Position numbers and translations under genes: made by a program. Source: a bacterium (GTDB lineage: Bacteria; Patescibacteriota; Minisyncoccia; Phycocordibacterales; UBA918). From it: 64,000 bases of DNA. The notes beneath the pieces are model-generated. The model was not told the DNA's origin and did no database searches. It saw only the letters and a program-made list of their open reading frames with translations. Shown here piece after piece: positions 1,108-62,730 of the stretch (position 1 is the stretch's first letter; the number at the start of each line of letters is the position of its first letter). The stretch lies in contig JAYSUD010000012.1 in the NCBI GenBank assembly GCA_043719295.1, forward strand, positions 26,790-90,789, written 5' to 3'.

Positions 1108-2937
1108 TTATGAAACAGATTCATTCAAAGGAGTTTTTTGTGGTGGCTTAATAAACGCTGTTGAGATAAGAAGTGTGCCTATTGCTCCAAATGTGATAAT
1201 CCTTCCTGCAAGTTCCATTTGCCACACATCGATAATAAGCAAGTGCAACACAACAAATCCAAGGAGAACTCCTCCAACAATATTCATAATCTTTTGTGCT
1301 TGTACTCTGCCAATGATAAATAACGTAATTCCGATAATGGTGAAAGAAAAAAGTGAAAACATTGTTGCTACATCATCACTGTACAGCGAATGTAATACGA
1401 GCCAAATGATTGCGAGCATGTATACCGTACCAGAGATGGCAAGAGCATGAGCAATAGTTGCAAAATCTTTTCCCTGTCTTTCGACTTTTTCAAACAGTAA
1501 ACCACTCAGACCAAAAAGGGCTAACGCGAGTACTGAAAGAACAAAAAAGTCTCCATGTAAGAATCCGTTTTGCCATGATGGTGCGAAAAGACTTTCTAAA
1601 GAAAGTATCATAGGAATGAGCATCAGTGCATGGATACTTTTTGAGATTTGTTCTTCTACTACTAGTTTATGAGCGAGTGCGATTACAAGAGCAGCTTCTA
1701 TGGTATAGGCAATAGCAAGTACAGGACCTTCAAGCTCTGCTGCAGTAGCAGCACCAAGCAAACCAATACTCACTGCACTGTATATATAAAATGGAATACG
1801 GTTTGAAGAAGATCGATACACTACAAAGGTACCGAGTCCAAACACAAGCATCCACATTGCACATAAGAGACTTTGGAACACATCAGGTGCAGCAGCAAAG
1901 ATCCAGACTACAAGATACAAACCAGTACCAACTGCGACGCTCACATGCACCTGTGCGAGATTTTCATTTTTGGGGTGCACAATACTTATGATATTGGTGA
2001 CAAAGAAAATGGCAGTAAATATGAAGGAGAACAAAAGTGCAATATCACTCTCTCTTGAGGAAAGTGTATCAACTAAGAACGGGAGGCCGTAGAAAAAAGC
2101 TATAACCAATGCAGCAAATGTAAGAGCTCGAGCACCGGTTACATGAACAACCCAAAGTGTCCCAAGAATCACAACAAGTAAGTACGAGAAAAGCACAACG
2201 ATGTCTGGGTTTGGTGAGTTAGTCAGAAATGGTGCAATACTTGCAAGACACAAACTCGCAAATGCGAGTGCTGTGTTTTTGTATACGACACTTACATATG
2301 CAACAAATGAAACTGCCAAGAACATAATGAGAAGAGAGGTAGCAGGAGTAAAGAAGTCATAGATTTCACGAGCTCCAAATACAGTTAAAAGTACAATGGT
2401 TAAACCAAGTACGATGAAGACACTTCCCTGATGCAGATAGGTACGGATTCGATATGTACCAAAAATCATGATTCCTAAACCGGAAAGTAGTCCAAGTGTG
2501 ATGCGTCCAATGGGACCAATCCATTGATGTGCAAATGCATAACTCACAAACCAACCAAAACCAATAAGCAAAAGAAGTGCCCCGAGCTTTACAAAAAAAT
2601 CCTCTTTAATCCATTTTTCAAATGCACTCTCTTGCGGTGGCTGGTAGAGCATTTGGCGTGCAGGCACTGCATTAAGTATCTGGTCTTGTTGTGGCACCAT
2701 TACTGCTGAATGAAGAACACTCGGTGCTTCTGTTGAAGTTGTAACAAGACTGTCTTGTGACAAAGGTGTAGGTGCAGTTGACACAAACTTACCTCCTTTA
2801 AGTAATTCTATTTCCCGAGCTAAATTTGTAATTTTAGAAGAGAGAACAAAAAAGACGATGATTGCTGCAATAATGCCCATACATTTATGATAATTAAGTA
2901 ATACACTAAGTATACAGGCAAACAATATCCTCAGCAT
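1108..2937 (-). CDS. Multi-pass integral membrane protein, DUF2339-like
   Basis: 609-aa ORF with more than 12 hydrophobic helices. It has a coiled-coil N-terminus followed by FEKWIKEDFFVKLGALLLLIGFGWF, resembling the FE.WIG motif of DUF2339. Confidence 0.5.
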   Translation of the reverse strand: MLRILFACILSVLLNYHKCMGIIAAIIVFFVLSSKITNLAREIELLKGGKFVSTAPTPLSQDSLVTTSTEAPSVLHSAVMVPQQDQILNAVPARQMLYQPPQESAFEKWIKEDFFVKLGALLLLIGFGWFVSYAFAHQWIGPIGRITLGLLSGLGIMIFGTYRIRTYLHQGSVFIVLGLTIVLLTVFGAREIYDFFTPATSLLIMFLAVSFVAYVSVVYKNTALAFASLCLASIAPFLTNSPNPDIVVLFSYLLVVILGTLWVVHVTGARALTFAALVIAFFYGLPFLVDTLSSRESDIALLFSFIFTAIFFVTNIISIVHPKNENLAQVHVSVAVGTGLYLVVWIFAAAPDVFQSLLCAMWMLVFGLGTFVVYRSSSNRIPFYIYSAVSIGLLGAATAAELEGPVLAIAYTIEAALVIALAHKLVVEEQISKSIHALMLIPMILSLESLFAPSWQNGFLHGDFFVLSVLALALFGLSGLLFEKVERQGKDFATIAHALAISGTVYMLAIIWLVLHSLYSDDVATMFSLFSFTIIGITLFIIGRVQAQKIMNIVGGVLLGFVVLHLLIIDVWQMELAGRIITFGAIGTLLISTAFIKPPQKTPLNESVS

Positions 2938-2970
2938 TTGACATGTTTACAGCTAGTACGTTTTGAATAC

Positions 2971-3840
2971 TTAGATCTTGTATACCCTCCTCACATTTTC
3001 AAGCAATTGCATTCTGACTTTTTCTTCGTCTTCACCTTTAATCTCAGCTATCTTCTTGTAGACTTCCTGTACCATCCACGGTTCACAACGTTGTCCACGA
3101 TAGGGTTTTGGGGCGACATAGGGACAGTCAGTCTCTCCATGAATAAGATCTAAGGGTGCATTGCGGACAATCTCTTCATAATCCTTTGCAAACGTAATGA
3201 CTCCCGTAAAAGAAATAGTTCCTCCAATATCAAAAAAAGACTCTGCTTCTTCGTAGGTACCTGCATAGAAGTGCACATTAAACGGTACCTTTGCATATTG
3301 TTTTAAAACTGCCAGAACATCAGCATATACACTTCGTCCAGTAGGACTCTCCTTATCTTTTTGCGGACCTCGAGTGTGAATCATTAGTGGCAATCCTAAC
3401 TCGTTTGCCAATTCAATTTGCGCAATAAATGCTCTCTCTTGTACTTCATAGCTATCAGCGTTTGTGTGATAGTAATCAAATCCACATTCTCCAATACCAA
3501 CCACTTTTGGATTCAGTGCAAGCGCACGATAAAAGTCAGTGTCGAACACCTCACCTTTTGACTCAAAACCTTTACTCCCTTCCCCAATTTCGTCTTCGTC
3601 ATGAGTAGCAGGTACGGTCTGTATTGGATGTAACCCGACAATCGCATAGAGATGATCATGCTCTTGTGCGAGTTCAACTGCCTTGGCACTTGTTGATTGT
3701 TTAGTACCAATATTTATAACCGACACACTCTCATTCTTGCAACGCGCAATAACCTCTTTCACATCGTCATTGAAGGCGCTGAGGTTTAAGTGTGCATGTG
3801 TATCAATATAGTTTGTATCCATTATGCACGAGTATACCAT
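2971..3840 (-). CDS. tatD: TatD-family metal-dependent hydrolase / DNase
   Basis: Typical TatD N-terminus (M)DTNYIDTHAHL and later GECGFDYY...H.R motifs. The start is probably the internal Met at 3822. Confidence 0.8.
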   Translation of the reverse strand: MVYSCIMDTNYIDTHAHLNLSAFNDDVKEVIARCKNESVSVINIGTKQSTSAKAVELAQEHDHLYAIVGLHPIQTVPATHDEDEIGEGSKGFESKGEVFDTDFYRALALNPKVVGIGECGFDYYHTNADSYEVQERAFIAQIELANELGLPLMIHTRGPQKDKESPTGRSVYADVLAVLKQYAKVPFNVHFYAGTYEEAESFFDIGGTISFTGVITFAKDYEEIVRNAPLDLIHGETDCPYVAPKPYRGQRCEPWMVQEVYKKIAEIKGEDEEKVRMQLLENVRRVYKI

Positions 3841-5261: not shown

Positions 5262-5507
5262 CTACTTTTTGAAGTGTATAAACCACATCTTTTTGACTGT
5301 AGGAAGTGAAAGTGTTGAAAGAAAATATCCGCCAACAGGCACAAGCCCATTAATTAGTGGTGCTTCATTACTAATTAGTTTCAAAAAAGTTACTGCCGTA
5401 AGATATGTAATGCCCATAATGAAAAACCCTCGGGTGTAACTTGTTTCCCAAGCTTTATCAAGTTCAACGCGATTGTTCCTTTGTAAAATTTCTTCAATGC
5501 TTTGCAT
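5262..5507 (-). CDS. Small hypothetical membrane protein
   Basis: 81-aa ORF with two hydrophobic segments (FFIMGITYLTAVTFLKLI, LVPVGGYFLSTLSL). It lies directly upstream of the GDSL hydrolase on the same strand. Confidence 0.3.
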   Translation of the reverse strand: MQSIEEILQRNNRVELDKAWETSYTRGFFIMGITYLTAVTFLKLISNEAPLINGLVPVGGYFLSTLSLPTVKKMWFIHFKK

Positions 5508-5511
5508 ATAT

Positions 5512-6156
5512 TTATAATATTTTATTTTCTTCTAACATGCTCTTAATTTTCAGATACATATATTCATGACCGAGCTCATTTGGATGTATCCCGTCTGGAA
5601 GGCAAACTGATTCTTTCCCTTGGTATACATCTTGAATATTAAAGAATAATTGTCCGTGCGCTATTGCAAATTTTTGGAGAACAGCATTATATCTTGAAAT
5701 TTCTTTATTGCTATATCCATGTGTTGTTTTCCATGTCATTGGTTGAACCCTTTTATCAAAAACTGGTGCAATACCAACAATAATAATTTTTTTGAATAAA
5801 TCTGATATAGACTGATAAATCGATTCAAGATTTTTATTCATTTCTGCTACAGAAACACGATTCTGTCCTGTACCCATTTCATACTGAGAATCATTTACCC
5901 CAATAGCCAAAATCGCTACGTCAAAGTCTTCTGGAGGATATTTCAAGATACGTGCTTCCGATTCTGCTCTCACACGCTTCAGTAAATCGGAAGTATTATC
6001 TCCTGAAACTCCCAAGTTAAAAATAGTTCTATTATATTGATAATCCGAGACAACTTCCCTTTCAAAACATTCTTTAATAAGCCGATTACACCAACCGCCT
6101 CCAGACATGTCACAAAAACCTTGAGTGATACTATCTCCAAATACTAAAATACGCAT
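5512..6156 (-). CDS. SGNH/GDSL-family hydrolase (lipase/esterase-like)
   Basis: N-terminal ILVFGDSIT (GDS block) and C-terminal DGIHPN (catalytic D..H) are hallmarks of the SGNH fold. Confidence 0.8.
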   Translation of the reverse strand: MRILVFGDSITQGFCDMSGGGWCNRLIKECFEREVVSDYQYNRTIFNLGVSGDNTSDLLKRVRAESEARILKYPPEDFDVAILAIGVNDSQYEMGTGQNRVSVAEMNKNLESIYQSISDLFKKIIIVGIAPVFDKRVQPMTWKTTHGYSNKEISRYNAVLQKFAIAHGQLFFNIQDVYQGKESVCLPDGIHPNELGHEYMYLKIKSMLEENKIL

Positions 6157-6157
6157 T

Positions 6158-7600
6158 TTATGATTCTAACCTCTTAAACAAATTTTCAGGTTTTTTGTTG
6201 GAAAGGATTGCTTCTTTTATAATTACATTAGTTTCGGGCATAATTGGGTAGAGCAACCGAGCGATAGTATAGAGTTCAGTTACAAGTTCAATAATTATTT
6301 TTCGTGCAGCAGGCTTATCAACTTTTACCAACTTAAACGGCTCAGTCACAGCAATTTTTTCATCAAGCTCCCCCACCTTTTTCCATATATAATCACATGC
6401 CCCTTGGAAGTTGTATGTTTCAAGTGCATCACTATACTCTTTGGGAAAATCAGCTGATGCAGGTTTTAGAATTGGTTCATCAAGATGTGTCTCTGCCATC
6501 TGCATGATACGCGCAACTAAGTTCCCTAAACCGTTAACTAAGTTTGCGGTGTAGTACTCATCCATTTTTTCCCAAGTTAAATCGGAGTCGTCAAATGGAT
6601 GTACATGACGGAGAAATATGTAGCGCGTTGCGTCAGTGCCATATTTTGCCACAAGCGCATATGGTGAAATAACATTTCCTAACGACTTACTCATCTTGTG
6701 TCCATCACTATTGATGAAGCCGTGATATATCACTTTGTCTGTTGCTTTAATTTGCGCACTTTTCAACATCGCCTGCCACATCACTGACTGAAAACGCACT
6801 TGGTCTTTACCAGCAACCTGGAGTGTCTCTCCATCAACCCAGAACTTTTGAAAATTACCTTCGGTGTCCTCTGGCCAACCAAGTGCTGAGATGTAGCTTG
6901 TTAATGCGTCAAACCATACATACATTATTTGCTCGTCATCCCCAGGTACAGGAACACCCCAGTCCATCCGTGATTTTTCGCGTGAGATTGAAAAGTCTTC
7001 AAGTCCTGCCTGCACAAAATTGAGTGCCTCTTGTCGTCGCCACTCTGGTGCAATAACGTTTTCATTTGAGAGATACAACTCAAGGTAACTTTGGTACTTT
7101 GAAAGTCGGAAGAAATAATTTTCTTCTTCAACTTCTTCTGCATTTGTTAGATGGATGGCACACATCTTCCCTCCTTCAAGTTCCGATTCTTTATAAAATA
7201 ATTCGCACCCTACACAATACAACCCAGTATATTTCTTTTTGTAGATGTCACCTGCATTTACACACTTCTCCCAAATTGCTTGCGCCGCTTTCTTGTGTGC
7301 TTCATCAGTGGTGCGAATAAACTTATTGTATGACAAGTTAAATGCCCCTTTGAGCTTTTGAAACTCTGCCGCATAGTGGTCTACATACGCCTGTCGCGAC
7401 TGCCCTTTTTCATCAGCTTTTTGCGCAATCTTCTGTCCATGCTCATCAGTCCCCGTATTAAAAAACACCTCGTGACCCATGAGCCGCCAGTAGCGAGCGA
7501 GTGTATCTGCCTGTATAAAATCAAGCCCATGCCCCATGTGTGGGTCAGCGTTTACGTACGGAAGTGTAGTTGTTATGTAGCGTGCTTTTTTGTCAGACAT
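6158..7600 (-). CDS. metG: Methionyl-tRNA synthetase (short form)
   Basis: TTLPYVNADPHMGHG (HIGH region) and KMSKSLGN motifs. 480 aa, with no C-terminal dimerisation domain. Confidence 0.95.
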   Translation of the reverse strand: MSDKKARYITTTLPYVNADPHMGHGLDFIQADTLARYWRLMGHEVFFNTGTDEHGQKIAQKADEKGQSRQAYVDHYAAEFQKLKGAFNLSYNKFIRTTDEAHKKAAQAIWEKCVNAGDIYKKKYTGLYCVGCELFYKESELEGGKMCAIHLTNAEEVEEENYFFRLSKYQSYLELYLSNENVIAPEWRRQEALNFVQAGLEDFSISREKSRMDWGVPVPGDDEQIMYVWFDALTSYISALGWPEDTEGNFQKFWVDGETLQVAGKDQVRFQSVMWQAMLKSAQIKATDKVIYHGFINSDGHKMSKSLGNVISPYALVAKYGTDATRYIFLRHVHPFDDSDLTWEKMDEYYTANLVNGLGNLVARIMQMAETHLDEPILKPASADFPKEYSDALETYNFQGACDYIWKKVGELDEKIAVTEPFKLVKVDKPAARKIIIELVTELYTIARLLYPIMPETNVIIKEAILSNKKPENLFKRLES

Positions 7601-23752: not shown

Positions 23753-23894
23753 TAAAATCCAAAAACGGCACACTTCTTCGTTGTACTACGTAAAATATTC
23801 CTCACTGTACTAAAAGTACACCTCGTCTTATTTTACTTGCACGCCTCGAATTGCACTCGTTTATTGAATTTTGCATGCTTGAGCAAGAAAAAAA

Positions 23895-25350: not shown

Positions 25351-25503
25351 TGAAATATCATTAGGACTTACAGAAACAAGTGCAATTCAAGACGTACAAG
25401 TAAAATATGACGAAGTGTACGCATAGTACAGTGAGGAATATTTTATGTGGCACAACGATGAAGTGTGCTGTTTATGTATGTCCTATAGTATACTGCATGA
25501 ACT

Positions 25504-27166: not shown

Positions 27167-27565
27167 TTGAAGGTTCCTTTGGTTGTTTTGTTATTACAAT
27201 AAACCGTGCGCCTCAGGCACATATACTCGTAAAGATCTTGAACTATTCCCTAAGACGACTGAACTCGTCTTTTCTTACCAAAAGAGCGATATATACAAAA
27301 AGCAGGCATATGCCTGCTTTTTGTATATCTTAGTCTAAATGTACTCAGACGTTAATTTACTTCACTCTAAAAACTTACAGTTTCAGTACACCTTGTCAGG
27401 ATTCTGTCCGACATTCGTCTCTAGAATCCTAGGCAAGGTCGGTAAGAGTGATATTAAATCACTCTTACCTCATACAGAGGCTGTATACCTTTTGGCTATT
27501 CTATTTCGGTTTCACCTCATAGAATTGCTCAAAAGCTCGGTGAAAGTGCATCAAAGCACCTTCAC

Positions 27566-27593
27566 TCCTTACAGGAGCAGTACACCTTTTGGA
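27566..27593. repeat. Copy of dispersed motif CTCCTTACAGGAGC(A/T)GTACACCTTT(T/C)G (also at 57336-57360; a related gtacaccttttgg motif lies at 59324-59338)
   Basis: Seen directly. It contains the CTCCTtacAGGAG mini-palindrome. It lies in the 475-bp non-coding gap after rplK. Confidence 0.5.
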
Positions 27594-27645
27594 TAGATTA
27601 TTTCGCAAAGCTCATAATCTACCTCAAAAGCTTCGTTAAAGTAAT

Positions 27646-28071
27646 TTAGATTACTTTAACGCCCATGCTTCGACAAGTACCCTCGATGATCTTCATAGCA
27701 GCTTCGATTGTCGCTGCGTTGAGGTCGGGCATTTTTATTTCTGCGATAGCTCGGATTTGGTCTTGTGTGATGTCCCCTACTTTAGAAGTAGCATTCTTTC
27801 CTGACCCTTTCTCCTTTCCAATAGCCTTAAGAATAAGACGTGATGCTGGAGAAGTCTTAAGGATAAATGAGAATGATCGGTCGTCAAATACAGTCAGTTC
27901 AACTGGCACCACCTCACCCATACGAGACTCACGAGTTTGCTCGTTGAATTGATTTACGAACTCACCAATGTTGATTCCCGCTTGTCCGAGTACTGGCCCT
28001 AACGGTGGAGCTGGTGTAGCTTTACCTCCTGTTGCCTGTACTTTAATCTTTTTTAATATCTTTTTTGCCAT
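27646..28071 (-). CDS. rplK: 50S ribosomal protein L11
   Basis: [35 protein letters not shown]... is the canonical L11 sequence. Confidence 0.95.
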
Positions 28072-29075: not shown

Positions 29076-29228
29076 GAAATTGTAATTAATTGAATAAAAT
29101 TGTTGGTTTAAAAAAACACCCTTTCGGGAGATTTATTCTATTATACCATGCATTATAAAAATACACAAAGGGCGACATGTTGTCGCCCTTTGGGGTTTTT
29201 ATAGTCGCTTCAGATGTGTGGAGTTAAC

Positions 29229-38239: not shown

Positions 38240-38419
38240 AACGTTCGAGAGTTTGCTGTGTCGATATAAACTGAGTTAACAGAGCGTTCGGGACGTCCAG
38301 CAGTTTTTGTTGAACATAATGTTGCACACGGCTAGCGCCGAGGTGCAACATTATGTTCTTGGTCAGCAGCAGAAACTGGGAACGAAATTCGCCATTGTCG
38401 CTACGCTCTGTGGCTCATT
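38240..38419 (-). ncRNA. Structured intergenic element copy E2 (directly abuts the TGA stop of nrdB)
   Basis: Outer arms are the same as E1 (ACGTCCAGCAGTTT...GAAACTGGGAACG). The inner 16-bp perfect stem GAACATAATGTTGCAC/GTGCAACATTATGTTC surrounds loop ACGGCTAGCGCCGAG. It ends ...GTCGCTACGCTCTGTGGCTCATT-TCA(stop). It has a 38-nt partial duplication at its 5' side. Confidence 0.45.
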
Positions 38420-39427
38420 TCACCACTCAAGTGACCCTCCAGTCTTATACTCCGTCACTTTTGTTTCGAAGAAGTTTTTTTCTTTTGGCATATCGATTAC
38501 TTCGGCCATCCATGGGAATGGGGATGCGGTGTTGTATTGCAATGGCAATCCAAGTCGTTCAAAACGACGATCTGCGATGTACTCAATGTACTCTTTTACA
38601 CTCTTTGGATTAAGACCTAAGATTCCCTTTGGCATTGCGTCATCAACGTATGTTTGTTCAAGTACCACAGCCTGCATAATCTTGGCAGTAATGTCAGCTT
38701 TGAATTCTTCAGACCAAATTTCAGGATTCTCTGCTTTGATTGTATTAATGAGGTCAATTCCAAACGCCAAGTGAATGGATTCATCTCGCAAGATGTACTG
38801 GAACTGGTCTGAGATACCTGGCATTTTGTTTTGACGCTTAAGTGACAGCATCATTGCAAAACCAGCATAGAAGAAGATTCCTTCCATGATGACATAGAAT
38901 CCAATGAGATCGTGGACAAACTTCTGAATATTTTCTGCAGAGTCAGTCTTGAAATTTGGATCAAATACTGACTTCGTGAAATCAACTACAAAATCGTCTT
39001 TTGCTTTAATTGATGGAATAGTCTCATACATGTTGTATATCTCATCTGGGTCAAGACCAAGTGAATCACAACAATAAATGAACGTATCTGTATGGATTGC
39101 TTCTTCGTATGCTTGTCGCAATAAAAACTGTCGTGATTCTGGGTTGGTTACATGACTGTATACTGCAAGCACTAAGTTGTTTGCCGTGAGTGATTCTGCA
39201 GTTGAGAAGAATCCCAAGTTCCACAAAATCATTCGTCGTTCGTCTTCTGAGAGTCCATCAGGACCTTGTTTCTTCCAGAGTTCGATATCAAGTTGCATTG
39301 AAATCTCATCGGGAGTCCAGTTGTTTGCAACTCCTGCTTTATAGTGTTCACGTGCCCACTTGTACTTCATGGGAAGTATTTTGTTCGGGTCGGTTGATGA
39401 ATTATTGATGATTCCTTTTTTTTCCAT
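38420..39427 (-). CDS. nrdB: Ribonucleotide reductase class Ia small subunit (R2)
   Basis: EEAIHTD...ESIHLAFG iron ligands and the overall R2 pattern. 335 aa. Confidence 0.9.
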   Translation of the reverse strand: MEKKGIINNSSTDPNKILPMKYKWAREHYKAGVANNWTPDEISMQLDIELWKKQGPDGLSEDERRMILWNLGFFSTAESLTANNLVLAVYSHVTNPESRQFLLRQAYEEAIHTDTFIYCCDSLGLDPDEIYNMYETIPSIKAKDDFVVDFTKSVFDPNFKTDSAENIQKFVHDLIGFYVIMEGIFFYAGFAMMLSLKRQNKMPGISDQFQYILRDESIHLAFGIDLINTIKAENPEIWSEEFKADITAKIMQAVVLEQTYVDDAMPKGILGLNPKSVKEYIEYIADRRFERLGLPLQYNTASPFPWMAEVIDMPKEKNFFETKVTEYKTGGSLEW

Positions 39428-39842
39428 GGTAATACTTTAATTTAGTGATTTTGCTAATTATACGTTGAATAGTTTTATAATCCAGTGGTCAAAAAACACA
39501 CGCGCGAGATATCACAAGCGTGTATGTTAATTGAATTGTCACTGCTGCATAGGCACCGCACAAAGCGGGTAAGGGGCGTCGTGCGGGGACTGCATATCGC
39601 GTTACACAATCCCGGCACGGCGCCTCTTCTCTATGACTTACAGTATACCCCACCCTTCTCTTTGTTCACATCTTTCCCCTGTAGATTGCTCGTCGTCATC
39701 GTTGTTTCTACCCAACAGGGAGGGGCTTTCAGAAACGAGTAAGATTCGCGAAGCACAAGGAATTTTTTGCGAGCCCTACATGGCGTAGGGTGAGTAAAAA
39801 ATTCTGCAGTGCGACAAAGAAGCTTGCCGTTTATGGAAGTCC

Positions 39843-46100: not shown

Positions 46101-46453
46101 ATGATTTCTATAGGATCTACGCAAATGAGTGCAATTCGAGGCACACAAACAAAATAGTGCGAAGCGTACATTGAGTACGGTGAGTATTATTTTGTGCAGT
46201 GTAACGAAGAAGTGTGCCGTTTTCGTAGATTCTATTCTAAAAAAGAAACCGAGCGAGCACGAATCCTAATCCTGCTCCCAGAAAAAAAATAAAGAATACA
46301 GCAACTTGAAGTGGTTCTTTTCCCATATCAGGTATAGTAATGGAAAACATGAGGAAAATACAGCAATGGAGCTGTACATAGAGCGTCTTTACTTGGTAAT
46401 GTACTCACATACCACAAAACTATCTGTCACCTTTTCTGGTATACTGTTTTGAT

Positions 46454-57165: not shown

Positions 57166-57232
57166 TAGTATGCAGTATACAGGTTAGAATAGTTTAGACT
57201 ATAGGACTCACATAAACGGCACACTTCTTCCA

Positions 57233-57314
57233 TACAGGAACTGTTCAGGTTGTAAGATATTTCTACAAAATATCGACAACCTTTTAAACAATGACACTGC
57301 GTCATTGTTTAACG
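57233..57314. repeat. Hairpin repeat family A, copy 1 (ACAGGAACTGTTCAGGTTGTAAGATATTT-loop-AAAATATCGACAACCT plus a TTAAACAATGAC/GTCATTGTTTAA hairpin)
   Basis: Seen directly. It has 14-16-bp inverted arms, AGGTTGT(a/c)(a/g)GATATTT / AAATATC(g/a)ACAACCT. Confidence 0.55.
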
Positions 57315-57452
57315 TTGTGCTACACAAAAATACTCCTCCTTACAGGAGCTGTACACCTTTCGCATAGACATGCTCAAGGTCTTGCGAAACTCCAAGTATT
57401 CGTTTCTCACACCGTACTATGCGTACGACTCGTCCTATTTTGTTTGCCTTTC

Positions 57453-57538
57453 TTACAGGAACTGTTCAGGTTGTATGATATTTTTCCAAAAAATCGACAA
57501 CCTCTTGAACAGTGACATCAAGTCACCGTTCAACCTTG
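57453..57538. repeat. Hairpin repeat family A, copy 2
   Basis: ttacaggaactgttcaggttgtatgatatttttccaaaaaatcgacaacctcttgaacagtgacatcaagtcaccgttcaaccttg. Confidence 0.55.
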
Positions 57539-57584
57539 AATTGCACTCGATTATGTGAGCCCTATGCAGCGTGAGTGATATACT

Positions 57585-59291: not shown

Positions 59292-59369
59292 TGCCCTCGT
59301 TAGGACTTGAACATTACATGTTCAGTACACCTTTTGGATATTTTTCCTTCGTCAAAATATCTCAAAAGG

Positions 59370-62317: not shown

Positions 62318-62410
62318 TAAACAGTCGCAAGAGACTTGAAAAGCTTTTGTGGAATTTTATGAGTGAAGCGAAATAAAATACCCAAAAGGTATACCGATTC
62401 AGTATGAATC

Positions 62411-62661: not shown

Positions 62662-62700
62662 AAATATCGACAACCTGTACTGAACATGTAATGTTCAGCT
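62662..62700. repeat. Hairpin repeat family A, partial copy 4, fused to the GTACTGAACATGTAATGTTCAGC hairpin (inverse copy at 59308-59334)
   Basis: aaatatcgacaacctgtactgaacatgtaatgttcagc. Plus-strand 59308-59336 reads gaacattacatgttcagtacacctttt. Confidence 0.5.
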
Positions 62701-62730
62701 CCCCTGTCCAATACATAAATCTTATACAAA

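Follow-up and report, generated by a model that had tools for sequence, protein, structure and literature searches.

Which kind of element occupies the junction behind nrdB in the 64-kb stretch of bacterial chromosome analysed here (contig JAYSUD010000012.1; the whole stretch is called the window), and how might it have come to be there? The initial annotation described at this place a second copy, E2, of a covarying structured element whose sister copy is E1. E2 was found to exist where it had been placed, with a slightly wider extent (38229–38424) once the nrdB stop codon and a second tail are included; both elements are read here on the minus strand of the window, in gene sense. We give a probability of about 0.65 to the interpretation that E2 belongs to a multi-copy, strand-specific interspersed repeat with two hairpins, non-autonomous and mobile or duplicative, of which it is a partly decayed copy. 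The family is regarded as a non-autonomous mobile repeat because it is multi-copy, has sharp boundaries, is polymorphic in presence, position and orientation, shows truncated and tandem derivatives and nested repeats, and occurs behind diverse host genes.

A repeat search paired the E2 region with positions ~29221–29370, 9,052 nt apart (families D5 and D10). E1 and E2 were 76% identical over ~150 nt, with fully conserved blocks between stretches carrying compensatory substitutions. Conserved blocks such as GAAACTGGGANNGAAATTCG were found only in E1 and E2 within the window, for 0.08 chance matches expected. A covariance model (R1) built exclusively from copies of other genomes returned E1 and E2 as the only significant matches in the window (next best E 0.5). 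Conserved blocks, compensatory changes and the R1 matches thus bear out the view of a covarying structured element with an architecture common to E1 and E2, and the similarity is due neither to low-complexity sequence, which had been named as the alternative, nor to chance.

For retrieval of the family, the pattern GAGCGTAGCGAC-N6-GAATTT (gene-sense reading), common to three copies, was scanned over metagenome contigs. At least 120 metagenome loci matched, and the same pattern gave no match in viral contigs. Model and profile searches covering 820 kb of fetched metagenome loci showed 146 copies, including ~30 off-pattern ones. Two copies are present in the window, and up to 3–5 were found within ~10 kb of some contigs. 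The element is therefore not peculiar to this genome, as its description as a feature of the window might suggest, but a member of a large family. Host proteins around a distant copy pointed to Kaiserbacteria, Nomurabacteria and Paceibacteria, and the carriers of the family are Parcubacteria/Paceibacteria-type Patescibacteria. A scan of public genomes with GAAACTGGGANNGAAATTCG gave 58 matches, all in unrelated coding sequence, this block being specific to the long variant represented by E1 and E2. Rfam 15 gave no match at gathering score, either for the window or for 12 loci carrying canonical copies, and no match over the element up to E 10, on either strand. Literature full-text searches for the element sequence and for Patescibacteria repeats or structured RNAs gave no relevant description. 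The family is previously uncatalogued, and it is distinguished by a stop codon in the first stem, an apex with double tandem G.A and G-N-A, and Patescibacteria hosts.

The repeat unit consists of hairpin 1 plus hairpin 2 and measures ~87 nt, or ~150 nt in E1 and E2. Hairpin 1 contains a 5-bp base N-AAAU/AUUU-N that includes the host stop codon, followed by a tandem G.A, a 4-bp stem of free sequence, an internal loop and the apex. Pairing was examined by RNAalifold and explicit pair counts in alignment A3, which holds 71 canonical copies. The outermost pair of hairpin 1 (columns 4-41, both free in the retrieval pattern) was UA in 37 copies, AU in 18, GC in 13 and GU in 2, and the next pair (columns 5-40) was AU in 45 and GU in 25; at three of the four positions of the free stem, GC, AU, UA and CG pair types were all present. 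Pairing cells reached 90.4%, compared to 70.1% in shuffles, and the covariation score was 0.545 compared to 0.184, with none of 500 shuffles reaching 0.545 and with scores of at most 0.152 when the partners were slid by 1–3 columns. The canonical apex is C-GA-GC-GUA-GC-GA-C (GAGC-GUA-GCGAC). Off-pattern copies carried GUAGC-GAA-GCUAC, UGCCC-GAA-GGGCA, UGCCU-GAA-AGGCA, GGAGU-GUA-ACGAC and GGAAC-GUA-GUGAC; since these are compensated, the apex is a short stem in which a second tandem G.A and two G-C pairs are capped by a G-N-A triloop. The foot of hairpin 2 is a GC clamp of 4–5 bp that comes as one of two sub-types, either GUCC...GGAC, which has a CU bulge, or CGCG-AG...UC-CGCG; above the clamp lie an A/U-rich stem with compensatory change at every pair and a pyrimidine-rich loop, usually with CUAG. 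A third hairpin nested in the loop of hairpin 2 was present only in E1, E2 and two copies of contig L125, and 13 pairs were kept via double changes among these four long-variant copies.

A variant architecture was seen in three contigs (L096:6687–6770, L124:12512–12595, L133:3029–3114). The basal stem is swapped for a 9-bp helix CCUAAAUCA/UGAUUUAGG and the AAAUGA/GAAUUU arms are gone, with the apex module AC-RAGCGUAGCGAY-UA retained. Judging from this variant, the apex may form the family's core.

The outer arms, which the initial annotation had described as the same in E1 and E2, do not form a conserved helix: complementarity of the tail to the 5′ end was null as a family feature in a duplex-energy permutation test (73/300), and the conserved helix is hairpin 1, enclosing the stop codon. 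The shared architecture itself stands. Tail copy 1 of E2 is able to pair with the 5′ half of hairpin 1 (ACAGAGCGU:ACGCUCUGU; duplex −18.9 kcal/mol), the strongest such pairing among 76 copies, and that of E1 is weaker (−10.9 kcal/mol). A pseudoknot or outer helix between the tail and the loop of hairpin 1 was also considered and rejected, with ACGCT present in just 5 of 73 tails and the same permutation test null.

Hairpin 1 was stabler on the gene-sense strand in 63 of the 71 copies, and a G.U was found at columns 5-40 on this strand in 25/71. The functional strand is thus the minus strand of the window, the sense of nrdB, because the tandem G.A, the G-N-A triloop and the G.U fit only there and the element is oriented in gene sense. 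No strand preference was seen for hairpin 2 (sense stabler in 30/71).

Upstream open reading frames (ORFs) of at least 50 codons stopped at −16 to −9 from the apex block in 46 of 59 cases, which places the stop within the first bases of hairpin 1. In a stricter census of 90 non-redundant copies, 36 were flush with the stop of a sense ORF and 36 more lay within 150 nt of a sense ORF end (72/90 in total); the other 18 had no sense ORF within 150 nt, 7 of them with only a convergent ORF nearby. The upstream hosts were unrelated housekeeping genes, among them those for V/A-ATPase subunits, GyrA, RNase J, RNase R, ArgRS, ThyA, S7, L2, L20, SMC and SIMPL. The first triplet of the element (UGA or UAA) is very often at the position of the native stop, which leaves the protein unchanged. 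Host C-termini were found to be native: SIMPL ends in ...YEVK* here and in ...YEVR* in element-free relatives, and NrdB ends in ...LEW* everywhere (...GGSLEW* here, as in element-free relatives). The downstream gene was co-directional in 34 cases and convergent in 32. A canonical terminator was present within ~120 nt downstream in only ~8 of 74 copies, so the terminators after E1 and E2 lie outside the unit. For E2, the statement that it abuts the nrdB stop codon can be sharpened, as the element contains this codon, and its placement between tandem genes agrees with the co-directional nrdB and HEPN-domain genes on its two sides.

Propagation by replication slippage or in a transposition-like manner, as initially suggested, is in line with the dynamics of the family, which shows presence/absence polymorphism, tandem units and truncated copies. 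At one orthologous locus, where a surface-protein gene ending in ...FNWTG* is followed by an HSP20 gene, five states of the element were found across relatives. It was flush with the stop in L153, 60 nt downstream in L077 and L184, fragmentary in L156 and L184, absent in L073, L107 and L136, and inverted in L161, where it was flanked by a 33-nt duplication of the gene end. In L161 (~5330–5650), these diverged direct repeats of ~33 nt on both sides correspond to the 3′ end of the surface-protein gene (...FSIMVFNWTG*) and are far longer than usual target-site duplications. Several filled/empty pairs were also found, the closest being L099 and L103 with flanks 90–94% identical. What separates the two is precisely one unit of ~87 nt, hairpin 1 with hairpin 2, starting at TTGAATGA... 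and ending at ...CCTGGG(C). This insert includes the stop-like triplet and its ends are not inverted. Target-site duplications, for which a check of the flanks had been proposed, were not clearly seen in this pair, and a family-wide comparison with permuted controls was null as well. Sixteen copies were truncated at the 5′ end, with break points in the apex or the 3′ half of hairpin 1, and 13 of the 16 lay no more than 250 nt downstream of another copy on the same strand. In L125, the 3′ end of a complete long copy is partially repeated behind it. Besides, L172 (~2770–3014) contains three head-to-tail full units with a 77-nt period, the third with a different insertion in hairpin 2.

In the light of the truncated and tandem copies and the 3′-end repeats of L125, the re-duplication of the E2 tail is a habit of the family. 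The duplication itself, reported as an insertion that re-duplicates an arm, is real: the two tails lie 43 nt apart, and a match of 18/22 to the E1 tail within 120 positions has a chance of ~4e-6. On the functional minus strand it is located at the 3′ tail, not at the 5′ side as had been thought. The exact 11-mer AACGTTCGAGA was found only in the E1 arm and in the outer tail of E2 (copy 2). The spacer between the tails contains a CGAC-N6 that appears to resemble the start of 5′-truncated units elsewhere (GCGAC-N6-GAAUUU). The sense strand of E2 shows two C.A mismatches in stem P3 and a weakened P2 clamp, and for these reasons E2 is considered partly decayed. Its fold is better on the plus strand (−69.3 vs. 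−60.0 kcal/mol), which is not so for E1 (−59.2 vs. −61.1 kcal/mol). We read E2 as an ordinary, partly decayed member of the family with a re-duplicated 3′ tail. The coordinates of both copies and of their parts are listed in the table.

Table. Parts of E2 and E1 and adjoining features, in window coordinates.
Feature	Positions	Strand	Evidence or remark
E2, whole copy: hairpin 1, extended hairpin 2, tail, spacer, re-duplicated tail	38229..38424	-	covariance-model match and alignment with E1 and L125
E2, match to R1	38336-38424	-	61 bits, E 3e-12
nrdB stop codon TGA; pairing in hairpin 1 starts with its G and A	38420..38422	-	ORF 38420-39427
E2 hairpin 1: GAAAU/AUUUC base, tandem G.A, 4-bp variable stem GCCA/UGGC, internal loop, second tandem G.A, G-C pairs, GUA triloop	38384..38421	-	predicted fold and family covariation
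Apex block GAGCGUAGCGAC: tandem G.A, two G-C pairs, G-N-A triloop	38397..38408	-	identical in E1 (29345-29356)
E2 hairpin 2, long variant: P2 clamp, P3, nested hairpin	38294..38383	-	sense -38.3 vs antisense -44.0 kcal/mol
Nested third hairpin in the hairpin-2 loop: 14-bp stem, apex CUC-CGGC-GCUA-GCCG-UG	38313..38356	-	-27.6 kcal/mol; compensatory changes among E1, E2 and L125 copies
E2 3′ tail copy 1, TCCCGAACGCTCTGTTAACTCA	38272..38293	-	17/22 identical to E1 tail
E2 spacer, GTTTATATCGACACAGCAAAC	38251..38271	-	sequence
E2 3′ tail copy 2, TCTCGAACGTTTAAATAACTTC, the re-duplicated arm	38229..38250	-	18/22 identical to E1 tail
Intrinsic-terminator-like hairpin with U-run after E2, outside the repeat unit	38171..38215	-	AAAAAGACCC...GGGTCTTTTTT
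Host gene nrdB (ribonucleotide reductase beta)	38420..39427	-	PF00268 homologues
E1, sister copy	29220..29372	-	R1 match 29285-29372, 64 bits, E 7e-13
SIMPL gene stop codon (in E1)	29368-29370	-	
E1 hairpin 1	29332-29369	-	
E1 hairpin 2	29242-29331	-	
E1 tail	29220-29241	-	

The window carries rplK, nusG, secE, nrdA and nrdB among other genes and is thus chromosomal; a phage origin was ruled out, since a phage collection gave no megablast match and the genes (L11, NusG, SecE, NrdAB) are chromosomal ones. Its NrdB has PF00268 homologues at up to 93% identity, the closest labelled Paceibacterota, Parcubacteria and Buchananbacteria, which makes the organism a Patescibacterium; a look-up of the exact NrdB sequence found no entry. 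E2 lies between nrdB upstream and a HEPN-domain gene downstream, and E1 between the SIMPL gene and secE. Relatives with an 88–89% identical NrdB show the synteny nrdA-nrdB-M10 peptidase-SIMPL-secE-nusG-rplK, and no copy was found after nrdB or SIMPL in these syntenic relatives (L060–L063). A further relative, L064, contains a short canonical copy ~120 nt after nrdB, past the nrdB terminator.

Directly after E2, the window contains a block of ~6.4 kb (32088–38057, minus-strand genes) with the HEPN-domain gene, a gene for a 143-aa unknown protein, a short-chain dehydrogenase, an M3-like peptidase and two unknowns. This block is missing from the syntenic relatives, and E2 is therefore at a junction with lineage-specific DNA. 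Compared to the relatives, an N6/N4 DNA methylase gene (30301–31095, minus strand) is also inserted between the M10 peptidase and SIMPL genes. A motif reading ...GCGAAGCACAAGAAA on the plus strand and TTTCTTGTGCTTCGCG in gene sense was found at 38137–38173, just past the E2 terminator and upstream of the HEPN gene, and again at 39726–39762, just upstream of nrdB. This motif also follows a terminator in the unrelated contig L074 (~6700–6760) and may serve as a promoter or operator-like element.

A second, unrelated structured repeat of ~100–110 nt was observed on the plus strand of the window, at 27556–27680, 57227–57317, 57336–57440 and 57448–57565. Three of these copies are in tandem at 57.2–57.6 kb, and partial inverted matches lie at 59303–59343, 62366–62407 and 62662–62702. 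It consists, in this order, of YYCUUACAGRRRCUGUYCA, a long hairpin that covaries, UCUUGCGAA, a short hairpin and UUCUCAC; the first small hairpin covaries (CUUC/GAAG, UUCC/GGAA, CUCC/GGAG), and Rfam gave no match at gathering score. In other genomes, this repeat was found inside the stop-codon element, where it interrupts the loop of hairpin 2 immediately ahead of CCUAG, in L066, L093, L138, L160, L184 and L151, and 20–40 nt after the stop-codon element in L072, L097, L167 and L074. Besides, inverted repeats of 106 nt and 101 nt, 79–85% complementary, join 23757–23862, 25374–25479 and 46123–46223, with shorter related arms at 57410–57446 and 57201–57236.

As a mobile or duplicative repeat, the element might work as follows. 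The hairpins would be the feature under selection, either recognised as single-stranded DNA by a copying machinery or useful, or at least harmless, in mRNA. Judged by its position and orientation, the element would be transcribed as the first part of the 3′ untranslated region (UTR) of the upstream gene; a terminating ribosome would then have to melt hairpin 1, and protection or definition of the mRNA 3′ end could fall to hairpin 2. The extra tail of E2 would derive from local re-duplication by slippage or template switching at stable hairpins, as in other members. The register with the stop codon has two possible causes: an insertion junction that shares or regenerates the stop triplet, with purifying selection in very compact genomes thereafter, or a function linked to termination.

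Several observations weigh against this interpretation. The window has only two copies, and these share only 76% of their positions, unlike the near-identical swarms formed by active REPINs (hairpin-forming doublets of repetitive extragenic palindromic, REP, sequences) or MITEs (miniature transposable elements with inverted repeats). A 12-nt apex that is invariant across many contigs, together with 40% of the copies flush with a stop, suggests more constraint than would be required of a purely selfish element. Eighteen positions were fixed in the retrieval pattern, so that apparent conservation is biased, a bias which the off-pattern copies offset only in part. Hairpin 2 is strand-neutral, which leaves an RNA role hypothetical. 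No transposase-like family was found among the protein clusters recurring in the 820 kb of loci, in a search that was not exhaustive, nor among the 25 of 70 Pfam families of the window that were listed.

The same constraint could instead reflect a cis-acting RNA device that benefits the host, an explanation that we regard as possible although clearly less probable than a mobile repeat. Hairpin 1 would sequester the stop codon until opened by the terminating ribosome and, with hairpin 2, would tune termination or ribosome release or protect the 3′ end, possibly through a protein binding the tandem-G.A/G-N-A apex; spread by duplication would be secondary, and the two explanations are compatible. 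The pairing of the stop codon in a stem, which shows compensatory changes in the pair of columns 4-41, the flush position of 40% of copies and the sense orientation of 80%, an apex sequence invariant in most copies, the sense-specific motifs of hairpin 1 and hosts that are mostly core and presumably highly expressed genes are consistent with such a device. However, the element is dispensable, displaced or inverted at an orthologous locus, close relatives do without it after nrdB and SIMPL, some copies lie past terminators or 60–120 nt from the stop, and hairpin 2 is strand-neutral. Transfer as single-stranded DNA, of the IS200/IS605 or REP-RAYT kind (RAYT, REP-associated tyrosine transposase), appears unlikely. 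The element would then be non-autonomous and moved in trans by a Y1 HUH transposase recognising hairpins of one strand, which is in agreement with two hairpins, a lack of inverted termini and target duplication, and a strand-specific fold. Its apex contains GTAG and matches d(GCGNAGC), an exceptionally stable type of DNA mini-hairpin, and its orientation co-linear with genes would usually place copies on the lagging-strand template. Yet where two genes converge and both have a copy, each copy is in the sense of its own gene, so that orientation follows the gene and not one direction of replication; the two hairpins are unlike each other, no Y1 transposase was found among recurrent neighbours, and GTAG lies in a loop instead of forming the unpaired 5′ tag known from REPs (PMC3733652).

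Three other explanations were considered and carry far less weight. The better plus-strand fold of E2, where the P3 mismatches become G.U, might point to an independent small-RNA gene or antisense RNA, but this is very improbable: such an RNA would start right after a terminator and run antisense into nrdB, E1 shows no plus-strand advantage, the motifs of hairpin 1 work only on the minus strand throughout the family, and Rfam gave no match on either strand. A hairpin starting at a stop codon is also the geometry typical of recoding signals such as selenocysteine insertion (SECIS-like) elements or readthrough stimulators acting on the enclosed stop. Here, however, the junction shows each of UAA, UGA and UAG, spread over three registers, host C-termini are native, downstream frames close quickly and inconsistently (E1: TGA AAT GAG TAA), and many copies adjoin no ORF, which makes recoding more improbable still. 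Chance or low-complexity similarity of two intergenic hairpins can for practical purposes be dismissed, as a model from other genomes gives E ~1e-12, conserved blocks of 12–20 nt have zero expected matches, and 13 pairs are compensated in the long variants. The interpretation of the family as a non-autonomous mobile or duplicative repeat is thus preferred.

Three narrower candidates were tried and rejected. A mini-ORF ATG-AGY-AAA-CGA-GCG-TAG (MSKRA*), 1–2 nt past the host stop, reads AUA in ~10% of copies, and off-pattern copies keep the structure, not the frame. A readthrough extension to the loop CUAG is in frame in some copies and closed at once in E1. For a hammerhead-like arrangement of UGA, stem and GAA, the core CUGA and the arrangement of the cleavage site are missing, and no Rfam ribozyme matched.

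Patescibacteria, whose genomes rank among the smallest and most streamlined of all bacteria, are almost unexplored with respect to non-coding DNA, mobile elements and post-transcriptional control. The family described here is widespread, has an unusually clear structural signature and is found time and again exactly where the coding sequence of core genes gives way to the 3′ UTR. Should it be no more than a REP-like parasite, it would be the first family of this kind defined for the radiation and a useful marker for strain-level genome dynamics and for the annotation of gene ends. If the stop register is functional or mechanistic, it offers a testable handle on translation termination or mRNA decay in organisms not yet culturable by themselves, or on a new mechanism of insertion. 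With a low probability, the element would be more than selfish DNA: a new class of mobile element with stop codons as landing pads, where the stop is regenerated and the host protein left intact, or a Patescibacteria-wide RNA device whose conserved tandem-G.A/G-N-A hairpin sequesters the stops of dozens of core genes and couples termination to mRNA fate via a lineage-specific factor. The covariance model from this analysis is directly usable for a genome census.

Compared to known systems, the element differs from MITEs in having neither terminal inverted repeats nor target-site duplications. It differs from intrinsic terminators in that hairpin 2 is followed by GUCYC.. or CAYC.. tails without a U-run, the terminators of E1 and E2 being separate and further on, and from integron attC sites in that no RYYYAAC ... 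GTTRRRY cores were present in the alignment and the hosts are core housekeeping genes. TIGR arrays consist of ~36-nt units with two alternating 8–12-nt repeats, edge and loop, each followed by a 9-nt variable spacer, 5–15 units beside a tas gene (Nop-domain), and some are found in the candidate phyla radiation (PMC12045711). The element resembles them as a short, possibly tandem structured repeat of Patescibacteria with G.A/box-C/D-like motifs; however, its units are 87 nt long, have no variable spacers, mostly stand singly after housekeeping genes, and no Nop-domain neighbour was seen. With the non-autonomous IS200/IS605 derivatives known as palindrome-associated transposable elements it shares the lack of terminal inverted repeats and target duplication, hairpins near both ends and a strand-specific hairpin (hairpin 1). 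In contrast to these, whose left and right hairpins are alike and bound by the same TnpA, its two hairpins differ in sequence; apart from the stop-like triplet, its 5′ flank varies and shows no fixed target tetra- or pentanucleotide, and no TnpA or TnpB was found near the copies in the neighbour clusters covered.

The pneumococcal BOX elements and the enterobacterial repetitive intergenic consensus (ERIC) sequences or intergenic repeat units (IRU) are intergenic, transcribed, strongly folding and non-coding, with uncertain mobilisation, and BOX is modular. As in these families, modules of the element are repeated or lost and there is no coding capacity, whereas BOX and ERIC/IRU show no sequence similarity to it, no fixed stop-codon register and no tandem-G.A/G-N-A apex, and belong to other phyla. 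REPs are mobilised by RAYT transposases, the genes of which the repeats typically flank, and those near stop codons reportedly affect translation of the upstream gene. An unpaired tag, GTAG or CGTC, marks one palindrome end of a REP. REPs are mostly located past the ends of ORFs, where the neighbouring genes are co-directional or convergent, and they are plausibly transcribed, with a role as RNA hairpins (PMC3733652). Like REPs, bacterial interspersed mosaic elements (BIMEs) and REPINs, the element is short, structured, multi-copy, extragenic downstream of ORFs and variable in presence between relatives. Unlike a REP, which is a single imperfect palindrome of 20–40 bp, it is a two-hairpin composite of ~87 nt with a stop codon built into its stem, arranged in direct tandem or truncated series and not in inverted doublets. 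Its GTAG is the triloop plus closing G of the hairpin-1 apex and no unpaired tag, and the CGTC at the foot of hairpin 2 in some copies is paired and variable. No RAYT was found among its recurrent neighbours in a non-exhaustive search, and Patescibacteria are not among the phyla listed for REPs. By the defining features of these systems, the element is not a REP, MITE, TIGR array, terminator, attC site or recoding signal, while in lifestyle it is closest to REP/BIME sequences or modular intergenic repeats.

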